A stretch of 61,767 nt of DNA, filler included, from Basidiobolus ranarum (GCA_040143965.1; 20 parts of 20 records of this genome joined end to end with filler, not necessarily neighbours in it); one strand, 5' to 3'. Positions 1 to 46,589 are shown, counted from the whole stretch's first letter. A program made the numbers and translations. The notes: generated by a model not told the origin, from the letters alone.

Positions 1-1855
1 TATATATAGGACATGATCCCTGTGATAGAGTCAGATTGTGCTGTATATATCATATTAAATAAAATATTCTAAAATTTATGTGGCACAATTTGGCACTATC
101 CAGCACCCTCTGGCATGATCAGTTTAAGCTCTATCTATAGAATTGAGGTGTGATAACCATTGGCCTGTTAGAACAAAAAAGATAATCATTGATATCAAGT
201 GTGTTAAAATTTATGTGTGTCACCCATTAGTGGGGGCTTGACTTGATATTTTATTGAAATTCACAGCATGGTCAAGATCATGAAGCTCTTGAAACTTTCT
301 GGATACATCCGCATAACTTACCAATATTCACGCAAATATGTAATGAAGATAAGCTTGTGTTATTTTTTGAGGTTTGTTAAAATATTTGTGGATACATAGT
401 TTGCCTATAGCCGTTTGGTACTCATAATATTTTTTTGCATCACAATGCATTCTGAGCACTAACTGGCTTATAGAATAAGAGCTTTAGCATCATTAATCGA
501 ATCAAATAGGTTTTCTATCGAAGTCGAGGTTAGCTTATTTTACTCTTATTGTTGCTTCAATCACTTACACATCCTCATCAGTTAAACATATCATCTCATC
601 TGAATTGAGCTTTATCCAAGAAATTAGATCTTTTCCAAATGTTTGCACTTCTTTAGACCATCAAGAGTCCATTTTCTTAATTCCCAGCATGGCGTCATTA
701 AGCAGCTCTCCTATTTCCCTATTTCCACTGTTACGTCTCATCTCTTAGATAATCACTTTTGCGTGTTTTAACTAGAACATATGGTACATTCCAATCGTAG
801 ATTTGAATCACTTGCTTCCTCAGATGTGTAGATTATCAGATCAATCAGAGCCTCTAACCAATGATTTCCATGGCCAACGTCACATTGTCGGAAGAATTTC
901 GCACGGTCAGAGGGATGTGACTGCATGAATGTTAGGCCTAGCATGTCTCCGGCCATGGTAAACATACAAACTTATATGAGTGTGTTACTACCGGCATGGT
1001 TTGCATGTCTTTACAGTGTGAGTCATATGGAAATGAGAATATGATTGGTGAGTCATGTCGGTTGAATACATGGTTGGCCCAATATACCCCCGAATGTGAG
1101 GCTAGACGAAGAAATACGAGATTGGGGTCCCAGATAATCGGATCCAAGCCACCTAATGTTGCTATAACAGATATCTTAGCTAGAGTAATCCAGAATGGCC
1201 CAATTTGCGTGCTTCTATTGGTACGGATCATGGAGAACACTCCATCTGACTCCAAGCATTTAGAATATTAGCTTTGCTGTCAACAATCCTTTTCCAAATC
1301 AACCCATGTCTCTATCGTTCTTGATCTCATCAGCTTTCAAGCACATCAAGCCACTCGCTATATGTAGGAAGGGTGTCCAATTGGTGATGTTTGTGGTTGA
1401 AAGAAATCTATGATCTATGCTATCCAGTCCGACCAATACGGGACACACAATGCCACTCAATTCAATTGCTATATTTGTCTAATGGGTTTCCAACAAGCCA
1501 AAAGTCATGGATTTATCTTTTAGATGGGCCATCATAATCTCCCAGAACGAGGGATGAGATCAGTGGTGCTGCTGGAGCGTGCTGATCAAGTAGTTATTGC
1601 TGAGTATCCTCCAATCGGCCCACCAGATCTTTCTCATCCATTTTTGTAGCAAGTACCAGCATGGAGCAGGGTTACCTAACTGAAAATTGTACATAAGACG
1701 GATTTATCCATTTGATTCATTGCTACTTTTATCGTAGATCTAGCTCTAGGTAAATCGACAATAAGGTTGGCTTCGACTTATTTTGACCAAGGTTTATGCT
1801 TGGTTGTGTTTCAAATTCCACCGCTAACTAATTACTGTCTACCTTCTTACCAGCA

Positions 1856-3007
1856 ATGTGTGGAATTTTCGCCGTTTTCAACTATCAAGGGGATGTTCAG
1901 GCCTATCGCCAGCGCGCTCTTCAGTTGTCGAAGAAGTACACTCATTTACTTTGCTCCTTGTAGCTTAATTGTACTCTAACTGAACAAATGATTCAAATTT
2001 CTAGACTCAGACATAGAGGTCCTGATTGGAACGGTTGTGTTATTAAGAACCAACACATTTTATGCCATGAACGTTTGGCTATTGTGGGTGTCGATTCTGG
2101 TGCGCAACCCATCGTCAATGATGATGAATCCCTTATTTTATCAGTTAATGGAGAGATTTACAATCATAAAACCTTGGAGAAGAGCTTGAAGACTCCTACT
2201 GAGATGAAGACTCGTTCGGATTGTGAGATTATCCTTCATTTGTATAATGAGATTGATACTGAGGTCGTCAAAAAACTTGATGGTATGTTCAGTTTCGTTC
2301 TACTCGATGTCAAGAAAAATCGGTTTATCGCCGCTCGTGACCCTATCGGTATTACCACCTTATACCAAGGTTGGAACTCTGCTTCTCCTGGAACTGTTTA
2401 CTTTTCCTCCGAGCTCAAAGCTTTGAATGAGGAATGTGATAAGATTATTGCCTTCCCTCCTGGTCACTTTTATGATTCCGCTACTGGTGAAACAGTACGC
2501 TATTTCAAACCTTCTTGGTGGGATGAGAAGAAGGTTCCAACCAAAGAGATCGACTACAAGGCTCTAAGAGAAGGTTTGGAAAAGGCAGTTCGTAAAAGAC
2601 TGATGAGTGAAGTACCATACGGTGTTTTGCTCAGTGGTGGTTTAGATTCCAGTCTGATTGCCTCTATTGCCTGTCGTGAATCTGTTAAACTTGCTATAGA
2701 GAGAGTTACTGAGAGCGATGATGATGTCGATCCTAGTGGTCTATACACCTGGCCTCGTGTTCATTCTTTCTCAATCGGTCTTCCTGGTTCACCAGATTTG
2801 ATCGCAGCTCGTAAGGCTGCCAAATTTTTGAAGACAGTTCATCATGAATACACCTTTAACCTTCAGGAGGGTCATGATGCTATTGCGGATGTGATTTATC
2901 ACCTTGAGACATATGATGTTACTACTGTTCGGGCCAGTACTCCTATGTATTTGCTTAGCAGAAAGATTAAAGCCATGGGTGTTAAGATGGTGCTTTCTGG
3001 TGAAGGT
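1856..3007 (+). CDS. ASN1: Glutamine-dependent asparagine synthetase, 5' part (runs off contig); exon 1856-1935, intron 1936-2004, exon 2005-3007
   Basis: The spliced N-terminus reads [35 protein letters not shown] (Ntn-amidotransferase Cys2). Further motifs: [46 protein letters not shown]. The intron is GTACAC...TTTCTAG. The ORF-track start at 1988 lies inside the intron. Confidence 0.96.
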
Positions 3008-6212: not shown

Positions 6213-6343
6213 CTCAACCTCCGATCATCATTCCCCAGTGGCCAATGCACCGCCCCAGAAGAGCCTACAAGAAATACAAGAAATACAAGAAATTTGCACA
6301 CCGTTCCTTCAAGATTAGATATTTTAGTGGAAATAGACACTAA
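6213..6343 (+). CDS. 3' end of secreted Gln/Glu-rich precursor with cationic tail (array copy 1, B-type)
   Basis: Reads QPPIIIPQWPMHRPRRAYKKYKKYKKFAHRSFKIRYFSGNRH*; paralogous to 7068-7868 and 8525-9216. Confidence 0.9.
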
Positions 6344-6993
6344 GCTCTGTTAATTGCTCCATGCCTCTCCTATTGATATGTTATTGTAGCCACAACAATA
6401 GTATTTCCTATAAATAAATATCAATCTAAGTATGTACCAGTAGAATGTGACTAATCTTGCACTTGTTATTTAGAAAGAATATCATCCAACCGTGATATAT
6501 TTTCCGGGCCTTACCTCAATAATCTCAATATAAGCCAGAGAAGTTTAGTATGTACGTAACATTTATACTGTATGTGTTTAATACTTCAGTATAAATGAGG
6601 TGAACTAATACTGAAGACAAAAAGCTAGTCTTCCGCAGATATTATAAAACTATTAATACATATATATATACAACCGATCTCTGGAATGCAAAAATTGAGT
6701 TTCGATATATGAAGGAATGATCATGCATACTAAAAGACATAGTCAGCTAGGTAGTATCATAAAATAGACGTTATTATATGGCTATTATAAGCACTCGAGA
6801 AGAAACTACTCCATTCAAAATTGACATTTGATAGTAATTCGTAATATCATTAATGTCAGAATCGAACTAAATTCAACGAGTTCATCGCAAAAAGTAGATA
6901 TTCATTTTGATGTGCTTTATCTAAACTAGAATGTAGAGAAATAGTTAGCGACATTAAAAAGGTGTACTATATGACTCTTTCGAGTAATAGAAG

Positions 6994-6999
6994 TATAAA
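6994..6999 (+). promoter_or_regulatory. TATA box of array gene A (equivalent TATAAAA at 8463-8469 for gene B)
   Basis: AGTATAAA lies about 60-75 bp upstream of the ATG in both paralogs, preceded in both by a similar AGTTAGyGAsATTAAA block. Confidence 0.6.
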
Positions 7000-7067
7000 G
7001 CTGCTGCTCTCTCATGAATTACTAATCATTCTGCACTTGGTTCATTGTCATTGATACCTCAACAATC

Positions 7068-7868
7068 ATGCAAGCCACTCTAGCTTTTTTGATCTCTTCT
7101 TGTGTCTTAGTTCAAGGAGCATTAGCAGCTCCACTTCATAACCTACCAGGTTTTGCCAACGCGGTTGCACACACCACTTACAAAGATAATTCGTGCGGAG
7201 AACAGGTTGGCTCATGCAATGTACAGCCTCAATATCAGACTACCCCTCAAGCAACGGGGTATAGTTATGCTCAACCACCAGCGATGCCAGTGTACCAACA
7301 GGGTGAAAAGCAACCAGCAGAGGAGGAGTCCACACAAGATCAAGGCCAAATGGAACAAGCTCCAGCTGAAGATACTAAAGGTGCAGTGCAACCAACAGAT
7401 GATGAATCCACTCCAGATCAAGGCCAAATGGAACAAGCTCCTGCTGAAGATTCTCAGAGTACAGAACAGCCAACAGAAGATGAATCTACTCCTGATCAAG
7501 GTCAAATGGAACAGGCTCCCGCTGAAGATGACCAGTCTCAATCTGAAGACCAAGCCCAAGGCACTCCTTCCTATACTACCACTCCTTCTGCATGGAATAT
7601 TGATCTGAGCCATCTCCAGCCCAAACAAGCGCTACTTGACGAATTGAAAGGCCACGCATCCCAACGTAGCCAAGCACTGTCCAATTCGAATCAATTCGAT
7701 CAAGCGCAGTTGGTTGACCAGACTATATACCAACCAGCTCAGCCACCTCAACCTCCGATCATCATTCCCCAGTGGCCAATGCACCGACCCAGAAGAGCTT
7801 ACAAGAAATACAAGAAATTTGCCCATCGTTCGTTCAAAATCAGGTACTTCAGTGGCAACAGACACTAA
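7068..7868 (+). CDS. Secreted precursor, 266 aa: signal peptide, 2-Cys segment, 3 x 26-aa acidic repeats, Pro-rich linker, RPRR, cationic Lys/Tyr tail (copy 2, A-type)
   Basis: Intact intronless ORF with hydrophobic N-terminus MQATLAFLISSCVLVQGALA|AP. Paralog conservation includes many synonymous changes. Confidence 0.92.
   Translation: MQATLAFLISSCVLVQGALAAPLHNLPGFANAVAHTTYKDNSCGEQVGSCNVQPQYQTTPQATGYSYAQPPAMPVYQQGEKQPAEEESTQDQGQMEQAPAEDTKGAVQPTDDESTPDQGQMEQAPAEDSQSTEQPTEDESTPDQGQMEQAPAEDDQSQSEDQAQGTPSYTTTPSAWNIDLSHLQPKQALLDELKGHASQRSQALSNSNQFDQAQLVDQTIYQPAQPPQPPIIIPQWPMHRPRRAYKKYKKFAHRSFKIRYFSGNRH
7311..7535 (+). repeat. 78-bp (26-aa) coding tandem repeat QPTDDESTPDQGQMEQAPAEDxQxxE, 3 copies (2 copies in gene B at ~8767-8915)
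   Basis: GATCAAGGyCAAATGGAACArGCTCC recurs at 78-bp spacing. Confidence 0.9.
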
Positions 7869-8524
7869 ACCCCCACTCTTTCACTGACTATTCTCATAAT
7901 GTCATTCCCCATGTTGGTATGATATGATCACAGTGCTCTATGTCAAATCAAATCAGTCTATATATGATATGCAGAAATATTCAAATTTCAATAAAAATTA
8001 AACAAAGAAATATTGGTTTAGATCAATAGTAGGACATCATCAATCAGACACTAAATATAATGCAAAGATACTGGCTAATGAGGGTACAACTTTGCAGAAA
8101 CATTCTGAATATACGGAAAACACAATTGATATATTTGACTGTTAATTTTTAGTCCTTTTACACTTCAGTTTTAGATTAAATATCTGAATCATGAGATTTT
8201 CATCGTCAGCAAGTAGTGTTGATGGTGAAATACCAAGTGGAGACTAGCAAAGGATACTGTGAGTACTACTTTAACTAATTGTGCTACTATATCAACTATA
8301 CTTTGGATACGATTTGGCACTCGAATATTGTATCCGACTAAAAAGAGAAGAGTCATTCACTTTGAATTTGATCTATGTATACTCGACTTTAAAATACCCA
8401 ACAAAACGCAGAGTTAGTGAGATTAAAGTGATGTATTTCATGATTACCCGCCGTTATATAAGTATAAAAGCACAACTTCCTCCTTCATTATATCAACATC
8501 ATTGTCATCAACAACTCAGTAAGC

Positions 8525-9216
8525 ATGCGTACAGCTCTAACTCTTTTGGTCTCTTCTTGTATCTTGATTCAAGGAGCAATCGCAGCTCCACTCCATAACA
8601 AACCAGGATTTGCAAATGCAGTTGCGCAAACCACTTACAAGGATAGATCTTGTAGAGAACAGGCTGGCTCTTGCGTTATACAACCCCAATACCAAGCCTT
8701 ACCTCAAGCAACTGAGTATAGTTATGTGCAACCACAGATGATGACAGTGTATCAACAGAATGAACAGCAGCCAGCAGACCAGGAGCCCACCCCGGATGAA
8801 GGTCAAATGGAACAGGCTCCAGCTGAAGATACTCAAGGTGCAGAGCAACCAACAGATGATGAATCCACTCCAGATCAAGGTCAAATGGAACAAGCACCCG
8901 TTGAGGACGACCAGTCCCAGTCCGAAGACCCAACTCAAAGCACTCCTTCATATACCACTACACCTTCTTCATGGAATATTGACCTGAGCCAACTACAGCC
9001 TAAACAAGCACTACTGGACGAAGTAAAAGGTCACGCATCCCAACGTAGTCAAGCTCTGTCTAATTCGAATCAATTCGATCAAGCTCAGTTGGTTGACCAG
9101 ACTATATACCAGCCAGCTCAGCCCCCTCAACCTCCGATCATCATTCCCCAGTGGCCAATGCACCGACCCAGAAGAGCCTACAAGAAATACAAGAAATACA
9201 AGAAATTTGCACACCG
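8525..9216 (+). CDS. Secreted precursor, array copy 3 (B-type), truncated by contig end
   Basis: Paralog of 7068-7868 with 2 acidic repeats and an extra KKY. Its last 91 bp match the contig's first 91 bp with 1 mismatch. Confidence 0.92.
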
Positions 9217-37194: not shown

Positions 37195-39656
37195 TTCTGG
37201 ATTTATCGACAACGAATTGTTTTCCAATTTTGAGGTATTGTTTCTTTAAGAGAGGATAATTGCACATAATAGAGCCCTAAAAGATTCATTTATCAAGTCC
37301 TTGGTGATTCAACTTGGAGTTAAAGAGTGCTTAATCGTAGAAAATGACAAATGTAACGGATACGAAATTTCTAAACTGACCTCAGTTTTAAATAGATGTG
37401 AAGTAGTGATTACTGAATGTAAAAAAGGTTGGTTTGCTATTGAATTGAAAATGAAAGTTATTATGATGGTTGATTCAACATCTCTCAGGCTACTATCAAA
37501 CGAAGAATGTTGAACAAGATCTAAACAGACTACTAGACGGAGAGGTTCCAATCACCTCCATGCGTGAGTGCCTTCTTAGCATACATCTTTTGATCAGTCT
37601 TCTAACGCATAAGATGTAGCTGAGTTTGAACTCAGGCACGCCATGGGATCAACTGCTTGCTTGATCAAGTATTTATCAGTAAGTGATACCCTAACCCTAA
37701 GTGTAGATTTAAGTAGTATTGTAGACTTAACATCCCCTCTTCTCTCTCGGTAGCTATTAGACGATGACATGAACTTTGGTAATTACACCCTGCGTCAACA
37801 TGATTTATCGCATTATATGAAATTAGATGTCTCAGCTCTACAAGCGCTAAACTTGATGCCAAGAATGCAAGATGGTGTGTGTGAGAATCATTCTTCTATG
37901 TGTATAACTTCTGGTCTAAAGCTATTGATCCAGGGCACAACAAAACCATGAGTGTTTTTGGAATCCTTAACAATTGCAAAACCGCCCAAGGATCTCGATT
38001 GCTTGGTCAATGGCTAAAGCAGCCCTTGTTAGATATCAAGGAAATAGGTTGGCCATTTTCAGTAACATTCATCTTCACAATCCAGCAACTTCATCAACTC
38101 TTGTTATAACCAAGGGCAGCGACAGACGTTAGTTGAGGTTCTCATAGAGTGTGATGAACTTCGGCAATCACTTCAAGTAGGGCGTTTGTTATCGAATCAG
38201 TGAGACTGTTACGGTGACCAACAATGTTACCAAATAATAGGAGGATCATCTTTGTCGGATGCCTGATTTACACCGCTTAGCCAAGAGATTTCAGCGAGGA
38301 AGTGCTCATCTACAAGTAATTTACAACTCTGATATCAGATACGCAACTCATTCATATCTGGAATTACCCATAGGATGTAGTTCGTATATATCAAGTCCTA
38401 ATCCGACTCCCGAGCCTATTGGATTCAATAGAAAATACCCAATTTGTTGACAATAAGCATAGGGAGCTGGTTGACGAGGTCTACACCAAGAAACTGAAGG
38501 TATGACTATGGCCACTCTAGCTGTTCACCGGTACCAAGCATCTATTCCATAGGAATACGTGGAGGATTTGTCCAAATTGCAGGAAATGATCGAAACAACC
38601 ATCGACTTGGAACGTGTCAATTATCACGAATATGTCATTAAACCTGACTTTGATGATACTCTGAGAGGTACTCGTACTTGTATAATACGACAATTGACAA
38701 TATTGCTGACCTTATCTGCCTCACGAAAGACATGCGTGACAAGTTGGATAAAGCAATGGCCGGACTAACAATGGAACATGAATGAGCAAGTGTTGCGATT
38801 GAAATTGGAAGACGAAGTAAGATTCTGACTGTGCTATGTGTATGTGTTTAGGTGGGTGAGAGCCTCGGATTGGAGATCGAAAAGAAACTGAAATTGGAAA
38901 AGAGTGCCCTGTATGGTATTGCTTCCGAATTGCAGGAACTGTAAGAGCTTTGCTATATATATCCATGTGTTTATGTATATCAAATCATCATGATATTGAC
39001 CCGAATGCTAGGAAGCCTCCGTTCTGAGAAGTAAGTGTACACAATACATTGAACTCTCCACACAACGCAGCGGTATTTTGTTTACCACTCGCAAAATGCG
39101 TGAAATGAGTGAAAAAATACGAGACCTCTCGGAAGAATACGATCACACGCAATCCGCCCTAGTTAAGGAGGTCATTGGGATAGTCAGTTGGTCTCAATTA
39201 TATCCGATGCCATTTCCCAGATACTTTCTGAGCATCAATTTTGCATTAATCTTGCTCATTGAAGCTTCATACTTCCCTATACTTGAAGTATTCAATGGAT
39301 GCTTGCACATTTGGATGTTCTTATTAGGCACACACTCAAACATATACATATCTACAACTCATGTTTGCTCAATCAATATTGGTTTAGCTTTAGCCATGCT
39401 TCTGCCCATGCCCCCATTGCTTACACCAAACCAAATATTATTACTCAAGGTCCGATATATCCCTTCTCCATTAACTACCAGTCGACTTAACACTCTTAAA
39501 GGTCTAGGAGATCTTGTTCTCATCAATGCCCGACACCCATGTCTCGAAATACAAGACGATGTTTCGTTCAATCCAAATGACGTAGACATAGTCCGCACAA
39601 AAAGTGATTTTCAAATAATAACGGGCCCTAATGTCGGAAATTCAATAGAAAATTAA
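37195..39656 (+). pseudogene. MSH2: MSH2 (MutS homolog 2) multi-exon copy, disrupted and truncated at Walker A
   Basis: Exons give [96 protein letters not shown]. Lesions: in-frame TGA at 38783, -1 frameshifts at ~38916 and ~39298, and no MGGKST or later exons. Confidence 0.88.
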
Positions 39657-39964
39657 TCAATTGAAGCAACAATATCAAACTAGGGTTAATCAGAATTGCA
39701 AATAATCTTAACCCTAACCCTCATCTGAGTAATACTTTTGTTGCGCATAAATCTAAAATAGTATGCATGAACATATTATTGTTGTTATTATTACCAAATA
39801 TGCAAAGTAGTCCAACAATAAATCAATTATTTTATGAAATCCACAATCACGTGCGTACATTCACGTAATCGAAATTCCAATCATCCATGAAATCGGCTTA
39901 AAATCAAAACTTGCCCAAATGAAAGAAATGAAAATCAAAACTACGTGATTGAAATAGAAATTCG

Positions 39965-40014
39965 ACGCGTTCCAATTTTATGACAAAACACGCGGCTCTG
40001 ATAAATATATAAAG
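39965..40014 (+). promoter_or_regulatory. Histone promoter elements: MCB box ACGCGT (39965-39970), CCAAT, second ACGCG core, TATA (ATATATAAAG)
   Basis: Motifs lie 50-100 bp upstream of the H2B ATG. Confidence 0.55.
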
Positions 40015-40066
40015 GATCAGCTGGGTACGGATTACGGTCATCAATTTATAAACATCTAAATACATC

Positions 40067-40182
40067 ATGGCACCTAAAGACGTCCCCAGTACCGAGAAGA
40101 AGGAAACCAAGCACAAGAAGGCTTCCCGTAAGGAATCTTATGCCTCATATATTTACAAGGTATTGAAACACGTCCACCCCGA
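40067..40182 (+). CDS. HTB1: Histone H2B, 5' part (runs off contig), short N-terminal tail
   Basis: [38 protein letters not shown] matches the H2B signature RKES/TYSxYIYKVLKQVHPD. Not in the ORF track. Confidence 0.92.
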
Positions 40183-40282: not shown

Positions 40283-40600
40283 ACTTATCTATTATATCTT
40301 ATTACACAAACTCCTGAATATCTCAAACAATTGATTTACTTTTCTACTATATAAGTCACCATATACTCTTGAGAATAAACTAACTAAAACACATTATCAA
40401 CAGTTGCTTCTAATACTCAAAGTCTACCCCCATTATGTCAAGATCCTCCAACAGGGGGGTTAATTTGACTTCCAGAAATTATGCAATTTTTGATCATTTT
40501 GCTCAAATAATCAAATCCAATATGGCCAAATCTCTTATGCCATAATTGAATAGTTTCTTGATTGGAATAACTTACATTTACACATAAACCTCTTGAAGAT
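40283..40600. mobile_element. Copia family-C LTR 3' end plus leader and gag start (+), joined to an inverted GAG-pre-integrase fragment (-)
   Basis: 40283-40450 matches the reverse complement of 52735-52902. 40458-40590 matches 19665-19805. Confidence 0.75.
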
Positions 40601-41641
40601 AAATAATTTCAACATGATTCAAGAAGGGCAATACTCATTTGGTATTGACTCAATGTTATTCACAACTTGTGAGTGCAATTATTACATTAGTATTAATCCT
40701 AAATATAGAGGCGTATTTTAAACAACTATTATGTAAACTAATGCTTATTCTTGCTGTGCATAAAACTGCTGTGGGGTAGTTAATATATATACTGTGCTAT
40801 GAAGTACAACTTCACAGAAATTTTATATGATCTGGAAGACATTCAATACCAGCTTCAATGCATGTGAAGGATTCTGACTCCAAAATATTGGACAGAAATC
40901 TAATAGCAGAGATCTTTGCTGCTTGCTGATATTAATCTCTGTAAGATACTTGCAACCATTTAACCAATTCCATCATAGTTTTTAGAATATATATTATTCA
41001 TGTGAACATAAACAGATTTACTTCAAAATTAAGTGGACAATTTGTGATAGCATTAACACTTGTCCAGATGTTTCCTTTAGCTGGTAAAAGTAGTGGATCT
41101 GATTTGGCAAGAAGATATTTGTAGAATAAAGTTGGAGTTTACCTAATCTGCCAATCTCAGCACTCTCTGTATTACACCCTTGTAATAAGCATGGAACTAG
41201 AGCAAATTTGGCTTTCCCTCCAATACCAGAGAAGATTTCCTAGTTCAAAAAGTATATTTGCCAGTATTGTGTGTACAATTTTATGGAAATAGTGCATTCC
41301 GTATATCAAATACAACTTTGGAACAAGGTACTATCAAAGAACTCAAATAATATTCAAAATCCTTGACAGAGAATTAATATTGGGGTAGAACAGCTTGAAT
41401 GACCTGATGCCATAACAATAATGTTGTAAAAAACCACCAAGAAATCACAAATAGAAACTGAGTAACCTGGTGCATAAATATATTCTCATAGTGATCATCG
41501 ATTAGTGAGCTACATTTGACAACTACATCCGAACAGTGTCGATATCAAAAAGAAAACTTGGCCTGTACATTGACAATTTTCGATTGTTGCAACATTTGTC
41601 AAATTTGCATATTTAGGAAGTATATAGTTTAGATAATTATT

Positions 41642-43270
41642 TTAAAAGATATCTTGCACATCCAGCCAAGCATCGCCATCTTCATGTAAGAACGGTTTCT
41701 GATTAGACTGCCCGCGCTCCTCCCAATATTGATTGGTAAATCTCCAGTACTCTCTTTGTGAATCTTTGTCAAAATCCTTTACAAACCACCTGGGCTTCCA
41801 GGAATATTCTGGAGTCTCTTCAAATTTTTTACGTTTGGCCCGTTGCTTTTCCTCCAGTCTCATTTTCTCTTTTTGTGCCAGTTCATACTCCCCATGCTCT
41901 AGGGCTTTTTGATCAGGTCGAAGACGTGAATCAGTGGGAGCCAGATACGGTAACAAGGTATCCGGGCATTCATTTAGCGTGATTGCAAAGGGTGTTAGAT
42001 TGAAAGGCGTTGCAATGTTAGAGGCCTTCTTTCGCTTCCATAGTAAAATGGCAGGATTTGAAGTTTCGCTATTATGGTTCAATATCATAGGAATTGGTAA
42101 AATCTCATTGCACTTCAACTTCTTGTCCTCAGGGAACGGCTGTGAATCATCGGTTGCCATTCGAGCAGCCAAGAACTCACTCCATTTACCATACAGTTGC
42201 CATATGATATTACCATGCCTATCTTTCACGACCCCTTGAACTATATTTTTATCCGAGCTTCCCCACTTACGTTCTTTGAAGGTCAAAGTACATGTTTCAC
42301 CGGTGCGATGGTTAACAATCTCCATATCTCCATAATTCTCTAGGTAAATCTTCCCTATTAGAATATTATTCACTCGGGTTGTCACCTTCTTCCATGAGAA
42401 ATGTTCTTGTATTGTTTCAGAGTCACTTTCTCCCTTTTTATCAAGTCTCTCTTCCGTTTCTACGAAGGCTTTGGGGATTTTTAGGTACAAATGAGTTAGT
42501 CCGGCCGGAAATAACTCAAACGATTTCCCCCAGAATTTGGTTTTACAATCAACTTCAGCGTAAAAGATGAAGTTTGAAGATTCGCAGTGACAGGCGCTAA
42601 TTGGCTTTGAAAGATATTTCATAAATATTGTGAATACTTATTGACACTTCTAAAACCTTCGGATTTCTCTTACCGGATGATGGCTCACTTGCTCGGAAAT
42701 GTATCGATATCCCTTGTCTATACGTACGTATTCAAATGTCTCTCCCTAAATAACTCCAAGTCAATATGAAAATTACTGAACTCTTTTATATGTCAGTAAA
42801 CTTACTAAAAGAGGATTAAAAGGTTTTGCTATTCTATGCTCAGATCCAGAGTAGTTGGTCATTGCAAATGTAGCAACCCAGAGTAGTCGCTGTAAACTGT
42901 CTGAATGTTTAGTAGCCATATCAACCAGCTCGCTATACTCCATCTCTTCGCACAGACGCTGAAGCATTGATGTAGGTTCATTGAAATAAACCGGAAGAGC
43001 AATCTTCGTGAGGTCCTTTCCAATAGAATTGGCTAACACAGACCATAATGATAGCTCCGGTTTACTTGATAATGATTCGATAGGTAATCGAGTCCGAAGA
43101 TTTCCTGGATATCCTTTATATGAAGCGGCAATAGCATCGGCGCTTCGTTGTTTTTCAACATTAAACTTAACAGGGATGGAATTATCTTTTAAAATCACCG
43201 AGTCCATTGCATCATAAAACTCTTCCTCTTCTTCCTCCTCTGCAGGCGTCACCTGTGTAACTTCCTCTAT
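41642..43270 (-). CDS. Oxysterol-binding protein-related protein (Osh1/2/3-type), 3' part; exons 43270-42806, 42745-42674, 42604-41642
   Basis: FFAT-like EEEEEFYDAMD; IGKDLTKIALPVYFNEPTSMLQRL; KPFNPLL|GETFE; OSBP signature EQVSHHP|PISA; PTDSRLRPDQ. Canonical GT-AG introns keep the frame. Confidence 0.95.
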
Positions 43271-46457: not shown

Positions 46458-46589
46458 CTTACCATTTATATTTGCTTTATTTAACTTTATTCTATTCTCA
46501 AATTTATTAGGAATGGTTCCTTATAGCTTTACTCCTACTTCTCATATGGCATTAACATTTAGTTTTAGTATAGCTATTTTAATAGCTGT
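46458..46589 (+). other. atp6: Mitochondrial atp6 (ATP synthase subunit a) fragment: NUMT or chimeric join
   Basis: LPFIFALFNFILFSNLLGMVPYSFTPTSHMALTFSFSIAILIAV matches the subunit-a motif N.LG..PY.FT.TSH. Very AT-rich with TTA/ATA codons, unlike the downstream sequence. Confidence 0.88.

Follow-up and report, generated by a model that had tools for sequence, protein, structure and literature searches.

A tandemly amplified, Basidiobolus-restricted family of apparently secreted proteins with a conserved block B and a cationic Lys/Tyr tail: candidate surface material

Do the tandem genes on a small contig of the fungus Basidiobolus ranarum (GCA_040143965.1) encode precursors of a released cationic peptide, or an extracellular material? 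The contig (positions 6213–9216) is one of 20, each of about 3 kb, that are strung together with N44-TTAATTAATTAA-N44 spacers into the window, the whole stretch of 61,767 nucleotides analysed here; since the contigs are joined by spacers, genes on the other contigs are not neighbours of this gene family. A first-pass annotation had described three head-to-tail paralogues coding for secreted precursors with a Lys/Tyr-rich tail behind an RPRR site. It had proposed an antimicrobial or membrane-active effector, with an unprocessed structural or adhesive protein as the alternative. Judged by its sequences, this is a family of real genes, amplified, restricted to the genus in the collections searched and apparently secreted, and a conserved block upstream of the tail, here called block B, defines it, not the peptide alone. 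The structural or adhesive alternative appears to fit the family-wide pattern a little better than the released peptide.

The reported layout of the genes was confirmed: a hydrophobic N-terminus, a C-x6-C segment, acidic repeats (three in copy 2, two in copy 3), the conserved block, a proline-rich linker, RPRR and the tail, which has 23 or 26 amino acids with 8 or 10 Lys+Arg and no Asp or Glu. By eye and by a simple hydrophobicity rule, a signal-like N-terminus of 20 hydrophobic amino acids ending in ALA is present in all complete members. Within their last 15 codons, copies 1 and 2 show 10 base differences; every one of them is synonymous and none causes a replacement, just as had been noted. 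The copies and their truncations are present as annotated, yet the "three" paralogues may amount to two gene types. Over 91 bases, the two ends of the contig differ by a single mismatch and are thus far closer than other paralogue stretches, which show approximately 72–92% mutual identity. It may be that a repeat unit of two genes has been collapsed here, with copies 1 and 3 as its two ends, or that these two copies arose by very recent duplication. The same 72–92% identity of paralogous stretches does not support a reading of the arrays as two alleles of one locus.

The family is large. A genome search with copy 2 gave at least 103 matches, some genes being matched in two pieces, and a search with the end of a distant member gave 95. 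Scanning 64 fetched stretches, which cover part of the genome matches, we found block B (ALSxSNQFDQxQxxDQTxYQ) in 80 segments of open reading frames (ORFs), where a broken gene may count twice. The focal tail ends 24 of these segments, another Lys/Tyr tail nine, an Arg-rich, Cys-bearing tail 11 and an acidic end with a short CxxC 15; the remaining 21 are cut or broken, and one neutral-tailed segment also keeps block B. Near-identical tails with the focal terminal 15 codons occur in 25 genes on 10 contigs (the close paralogues). They form head-to-tail arrays, of which the one on C7471 has nine copies that are intact or nearly so and the one on C1261 four. The 26-amino-acid acidic units number 0 to 3 in close paralogues. 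A match to TATA[AT]A[AT] lies 62–77 bases 5′ of the ATG in 14 of 16 close paralogues (the TATAAA of copy 2 falls narrowly short of this 7-base pattern), and AATAAA or ATTAAA is found within 160 bases 3′ of the stop codon in 27 of the 30 genes examined. Tail type tracks the tree of block B, which was built from 53 rows and 49 columns and resolves few forks; in it, Arg-rich and CxxC-ended members form one branch with 100/100 support. Tail swapping between clades is therefore superfluous as an explanation.

Homologues were found in Basidiobolus only. All 18 homologues of copy 2 and all 63 homologues of a 24-member profile (38 from B. ranarum, 25 from B. meristosporus) belong to the genus, and all but one are labelled hypothetical. 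An index-free search of 1.84 billion representatives returned 21 matches, of which 16 are named Basidiobolus, three match ORFs of G000 and two look B. meristosporus-like by eye. A search among longer proteins (362–2000 amino acids), which is a weak test, gave one match, a fused B. meristosporus gene model. Pfam gave nothing past its cut-off for copies 2 and 3 and a best E of 0.028 for the 24 aligned members. In NCBIfam, one of the 24 members matched at E 0.01, which we judged to be chance; PDB sequences gave no match at E 10, and two queries of the ESM Atlas no usable match. The claim that the family is uncharacterised is supported. None of the pattern matches in prokaryotic genomes (16) and metagenomes (275) was confirmed, so nothing points to a bacterial origin. 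The Basidiobolus literature on secreted or antimicrobial peptides, capilliconidial adhesion, genomes and KEX2 yielded no account of the family, a negative on which subscription papers and supplements may also bear; the excerpts of PMC9391592 and PMC7466969 do not mention it.

The tail is kept by purifying selection and not by recent homogenisation. The ratio of non-synonymous to synonymous change (dN/dS) was calculated by pooled pairwise Nei-Gojobori comparison of close paralogues, with 14 to 25 genes per region and pairs that are not independent. It was 0.56 for the signal, 0.17 for the N-terminal Cys region, 0.07 for block B, 0.12 for the linker and 0.03 for the last 15 codons, while dS ranged from 0.3 to 1.2 across regions. 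The strong constraint on the tail that the first-pass annotation had proposed to check in this way was thus found, and block B is almost as constrained (0.07 versus 0.03). Twenty-five paralogues with saturating synonymous change and one tail point to selection for amount, not diversity. Since block B is also kept in the 11 Arg-rich, the 15 CxxC-ended and the one neutral-tailed segments, its role is likely to be independent of the cationic peptide. It consists of Gln, Asn and Ser with alternating Phe, Val, Ile and Tyr, and it is kept in every clade. Neither block B plus tail nor a full-length protein carrying both conserved blocks received a fold from AlphaFold2: the predicted template modelling score (pTM) was 0.17 for the former, in which ALLDEL forms one short helix, and 0.14 for the latter. 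The alignments, of 52 and 17 rows, are shallow enough to cause low scores by themselves, so the missing fold is weak evidence of disorder in the monomers. As block B is kept in every clade yet lacks a predicted monomer fold, we infer that it might be an assembly or recognition motif.

The candidate processing site is not stable across the family. We compared 49 Lys/Tyr tails, 25 from close paralogues, nine from other B. ranarum genes and 15 from B. meristosporus. In the close paralogues the RPRR position reads RPRR or RPKR in 21 of 25, RPRK in three and RPTR in one (RxxR in 22/25). Ahead of the terminal strand, KR and RR are absent from the nine other B. ranarum paralogues, of which three keep Arg-Pro at the site. 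In B. meristosporus, KR or RR lies nine residues further down, directly after a conserved tyrosine and inside the proposed peptide, in 13 of 15 proteins; of the other two, one carries RR close to where RPRR would stand and the second lacks both, so that 14/15 carry some KR/RR. That tyrosine (Tyr248) is kept in 48/49 tails and is followed by two basic residues in 45/49: KK in close paralogues, RK in seven others and KR or RR in the 13 B. meristosporus proteins. The number of YKK units varies from 1 to 3, the 15 residues behind them are near invariant, and the terminal strand [FY]K[IVL]RYxSGxR is constant. The claim of a strictly conserved peptide behind RPRR therefore does not hold family-wide, and the 23-mer is not what the family conserves as a unit.

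The B. meristosporus proteins (P0017–P0020, P0023, P0030, P0047, P0054–P0060 and others) are hypothetical and multi-copy, and they are the closest known system. They share the signal-like N-terminus, C-x6-C, the acidic region, block B, an Ile-rich linker and tails ending FK[IV]RYFSGNR[HY]; unlike the focal genes, they lack RPRR and have a shorter acidic region without the 26-amino-acid repeat. None has a fitting functional name, P0061 being a model fused to a glutamine-amidotransferase-like protein.

Within the focal subfamily, clipping at RPRR is probable, since an exposed RPRR in a disordered secreted protein would likely be cut. KR and RR are absent upstream of the tail in 15/15 complete close paralogues and in 37/41 proteins overall, and the acidic region of copy 2 has just two isolated lysines. 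P domains of proprotein convertases (kexin-type) were found at four loci of the genome, on C6895, C2655 and C6903. Yeast has a single Kex2; the specificities of the four may differ. The idea of a released peptide thus has its site in the close paralogues and its candidate proteases, and loses the site in the nine distant ones. The proposed masking by an anionic pro-region has a similar fate. The net charge upstream of the tail is −10 to −32 in 15/15 complete close paralogues against +10 or +11 for the tail, so that the front could balance it. The block before the linker, with a net −2 over 50 amino acids, is no anionic mask, and it is conserved in members that lack a cationic end. The balance fails in several distant members (+7, −1, −1), and upstream and tail charge are not correlated among 41 proteins (Spearman −0.15, p 0.36).

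The reading to which we give most weight, though we hold it tentatively, is that the family makes a bulk, secreted, disordered, charge-segregated and self-associating surface material for the wall, the spore coat or the glue of the capilliconidia, and that kexin probably clips it. It is favoured because the kexin site moves or vanishes across the family while the YxxY/F spacing and the terminal strand stay. The many intronless, TATA-driven copies seen in the genome would give high output, and the N-terminus would direct the protein into the secretory route. Block B, with its family-wide conservation, could serve as a self-association or recognition element that probably folds only in the assembly. 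Acidic front and cationic tail would pair by charge and condense, and a clip at the RPRR present in the sequence would leave a polyanion and a polycation in the same material. The weakest step is the last: the tail might bind polyanionic surfaces and be cured by oxidation of tyrosine, with cysteine taking this part in the sister clade.

There is fungal precedent for a Kex2-cut structural peptide in Rep1 of Ustilago maydis (PMC6339444, PMC7329392). Rep1 is one of the Kex2-processed repeat proteins (KEPs; Le Marquer 2019, PMC6339444; Umemura 2020, PMC7329392), which, as the focal proteins appear to be, are secreted fungal precursors with a kexin-type site, and it illustrates that Kex2 products can be wall-surface material. 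A KEP is defined by a signal peptide for the endoplasmic reticulum and at least three tandem repeats of at least eight residues between KR/KK/RK/RR sites (Umemura 2020, PMC7329392). Unlike in KEPs, the repeats here have no flanking dibasic sites, and one C-terminal unit per gene is multiplied by gene duplication. The family is not a KEP family, given that no KR/RR lies upstream of the tail in the complete close paralogues; nor does it belong to any other named family against which it was compared. The chemistry recalls Tyr/Lys-rich adhesives and coats (mussel foot proteins, sandcastle-worm cement, Bacillus CotC), which also place Tyr next to Lys; oppositely charged blocks can coacervate, as described together with Dopa adhesives in PMC5633886. 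Unlike the mussel and sandcastle-worm adhesives, to which it has no homology, the tail has tyrosine at only 3/23 residues, and the likeness is one of chemistry. By analogy, the family would work most plausibly like Kex2-clipped surface material, with Rep1-like logic and adhesive-like chemistry, a comparison in which our confidence stays short of even.

Cross-linking has one hint in the tails. When Arg-rich and Lys/Tyr tails are compared in register (three Lys/Tyr and two Arg-rich tails were left out), the best mean BLOSUM62 score is 0.36 at offset 0 and at most 0.01 elsewhere, and 7 of 8 distinct Arg-rich tails have a cysteine where Tyr248 would stand. The coincidence of Tyr and Cys in register is a weak hint of cross-linking.

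Several points weigh against a surface material. The exchange of Tyr for Cys is a single transition, and the score for their coincidence, 2.82 at offset 0, is close to the 2.61 at offset +6. The shallow alignments behind the structure predictions have been mentioned above. The acidic part of all 15 complete close paralogues carries at least the charge of the tail, and KR/RR occurs nowhere but in the tail, which is pro-peptide-like. Tyrosinase domains have undergone a large expansion in the genome (57 matches on about 33 contigs), a permissive context for curing. None of the 57 shares a contig with the family, however, and such enzymes also serve other purposes. The tie to the adhesive drop, the most specific form of the proposal, is by analogy.

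That form states that the family supplies the protein of the capilliconidial adhesive drop: a glue that condenses by charge pairing, is assembled by block B and cured by tyrosinase, convergent with the mussel and sandcastle-worm adhesives. Capilliconidia of Basidiobolus have adhesive tips that stick to insects (PMC10964425, PMC13370150) and form an adhesive beak and droplet (PMC13370150, PMC5126542). Nothing relevant was found in the literature on fungal adhesives and Dopa, and we regard this specific form as unlikely.

A prepro-peptide of a non-lytic antibacterial 23–26-mer, freed by kexin, masked by the acidic front and with block B as pro-domain, is the strongest rival, which we hold to be less likely than not. 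The cathelin domain of the cathelicidins, a conserved pro-domain, would be an analogue for block B. The close paralogues suit such a precursor in their sites and charges, KR/RR occurs somewhere ahead of the terminal strand in 14/15 B. meristosporus proteins, and P-domain convertases are encoded in the genome. Kexin would also cut within the Arg-rich tails and the B. meristosporus tail, the other nine Lys/Tyr-tailed paralogues offer no site, and 15 segments end acidic with a short CxxC and one neutral. The putative signal, the acidic spacer, the basic site of the close paralogues and the cationic C-terminus recall the anionic-pro/cationic-mature precursors (alpha-defensins, frog-skin peptides, cathelicidins, histatin-like peptides). 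Unlike in these, the mature part is invariant and the signal variable, the reverse of amphibian and defensin-type families; the tail is not amphipathic, a long neutral block is conserved, and Pfam and PDB searches gave no similarity to antimicrobial precursors. The tail of copy 2 has 8 Lys+Arg, 3 Tyr and 2 His, is 26% hydrophobic and has a mean Eisenberg hydrophobicity of −0.42. Its best 11-residue hydrophobic moment does not exceed that of 2000 shuffles (p 0.25, 0.09, 0.46 and 0.40 at 100, 160, 170 and 180 degrees), which argues against a membrane-lytic peptide. The tail is cationic, as first described, and seems unlike a lytic peptide; its make-up would suit a molecule that binds polyanions or an antimicrobial of a non-lytic kind. 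The fungus shares the gut with bacteria (PMC10964425), and the B. meristosporus strain is the one richest in KEPs, with 43 (PMC7329392), which would both suit an antibacterial product.

The genes might instead encode a short signal peptide, although we think this improbable. Cleavage after KKY-basic-basic would free a 16–18-mer ending FKIRYFSGNR[HY] in both species, with the YKK units as spacer. This would match the dibasic pair after the conserved tyrosine and the varying YKK number before 15 near-invariant residues. KK and RK, counted as Kex2 sites in one survey (PMC7329392), are weaker sites, and KK is cut less often (PMC6339444). A front of 200 residues with a strictly kept block of 45 would be much to throw away, the XA/XP run of STE13-type processing is absent after the site, and the CxxC clade has no such peptide.

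Very improbable is a peptide that is made by the ribosome and modified after translation (RiPP), in which block B would be the recognition leader of an enzyme acting on the tail, with its Tyr or Cys, by cross-linking or cyclisation: a constant leader-like block before variable ends, with Tyr and Cys in register, would suit it, whereas the core is single and unrepeated and no modifying enzyme was found among 16 flanking ORFs. In particular, the repeated cores between Kex2 sites of the dikaritin/ustiloxin type are replaced here by a single C-terminal unit.

The features of the contig are collected in Table 1.

Table 1. Features mapped on the family contig (positions in the window)
Feature	Position	Strand	Remark
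Whole contig G000:C2797, 3004 bases, tandem-array fragment	6213..9216	.	both ends break within the conserved 3′ gene part
Copy 1, of which the 3′ end is present (linker, RPRR, tail and stop; the tail has three YKK units)	6215..6343	+	42-codon end
TATA-like element of copy 2, TATAAA, 74 bases 5′ of ATG	6994..6999	+	sequence
Copy 2, complete intronless ORF, 266 amino acids (P0001)	7068..7868	+	
Putative signal peptide, residues 1–20	7068..7127	+	by eye; least constrained region
C-x6-C segment, residues 43–50	7194..7217	+	common to most Lys/Tyr-tailed members, both species
Three 26-amino-acid acidic Gln/Glu/Asp repeats, residues 82–159, without dibasic site	7311..7544	+	
Block B, family-defining, PxQALLD...ALSxSNQFDQxQxxDQTxYQ, residues 176–222	7593..7733	+	
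Pro/Gln-rich linker, Ile-Ile-Ile core, residues 223–239	7734..7784	+	
RPRR, candidate kexin site	7785..7796	+	
Cationic Lys/Tyr tail, residues 244–266	7797..7865	+	
AATAAA, candidate polyadenylation signal of copy 2	7990..7995	+	
TATA box of copy 3	8463..8469	+	
Copy 3, broken by contig end inside tail	8525..9216	+	230 amino acids read, two acidic repeats, three YKK units

The 16 ORFs flanking family members comprise a kinase, ZPR1, a Dabb protein, an amidohydrolase, a short-chain dehydrogenase and 11 without family. They contain no peptide-modifying cluster, and none matches UstYa (DUF3328). A genome-wide search for UstYa gave no match with controls likewise silent, so that its absence is not established.

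Other subfamilies differ in several ways. A second conserved block, block A (PLLKQVFTTVTRKHxNLN...IKYQSGPSxExEG), lies near the N-terminus of most of them in both species and is missing from the focal subfamily; it was seen in L039:5900-6982, L040–L043, L053, L058, L061, L066–L068 and L070 and in P0030 and P0047. Its IKYQSG resembles the IRYFSG of the tail. The idea that block A is an ancient repeat of block B was rejected (hhalign 9.45 versus 8.6 ± 2.2, reached by 40/150 column shuffles). The sister clade has protamine-like Arg/Cys tails ending FGRRY and is also tandem, with at least four copies on C1873 (L039:863-1642, L053, L058, L061, L066–L068). The clade with an acidic stretch and an RCxxCN end comprises L052, L054–L057, L063, L064, L070–L072 and L077–L088. 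Stops or frameshifts interrupt many of its copies, a pattern that suggests birth-and-death turnover. In the member at L039:5900-6982, His/Lys-rich (KPKKHHT) and Met-rich repeats replace the acidic region, and the net charge is +17. The B. meristosporus models P0029, P0031, P0050, P0051, P0053, P0061 and P0021 look like wrong fusions with the next gene, with the terminal strand spliced out.

Elsewhere in the window, a 994-codon open frame with Ser/His-rich repeats (SSxHSESVKPT) fills the contig at 46459–49440 (+); about 45 residues before the repeats presumably resemble a piece of mitochondrial ATP synthase subunit a. By eye, 1–3007, 37195–40182 and 40283–43270 contain an asparagine synthetase, an MSH2-like mismatch repair piece and an oxysterol-binding protein, and many other contigs hold remains of Copia-type retroelements.

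Among the amplified secreted families of this gut symbiont, which occasionally causes disease in humans, the present one is of the large kind; it has no known relative outside Basidiobolus in the collections searched, and its near-invariant peptide of 16–26 residues is readily synthesised. Basidiobolus inhabits the guts of amphibians and reptiles (PMC10964425). If the proteins form a surface material, they would be a candidate adhesive that carries the fungus on insects to these hosts; if the peptide is released, an early-diverging fungus would have here a ribosomal peptide with an antibacterial or signalling role.

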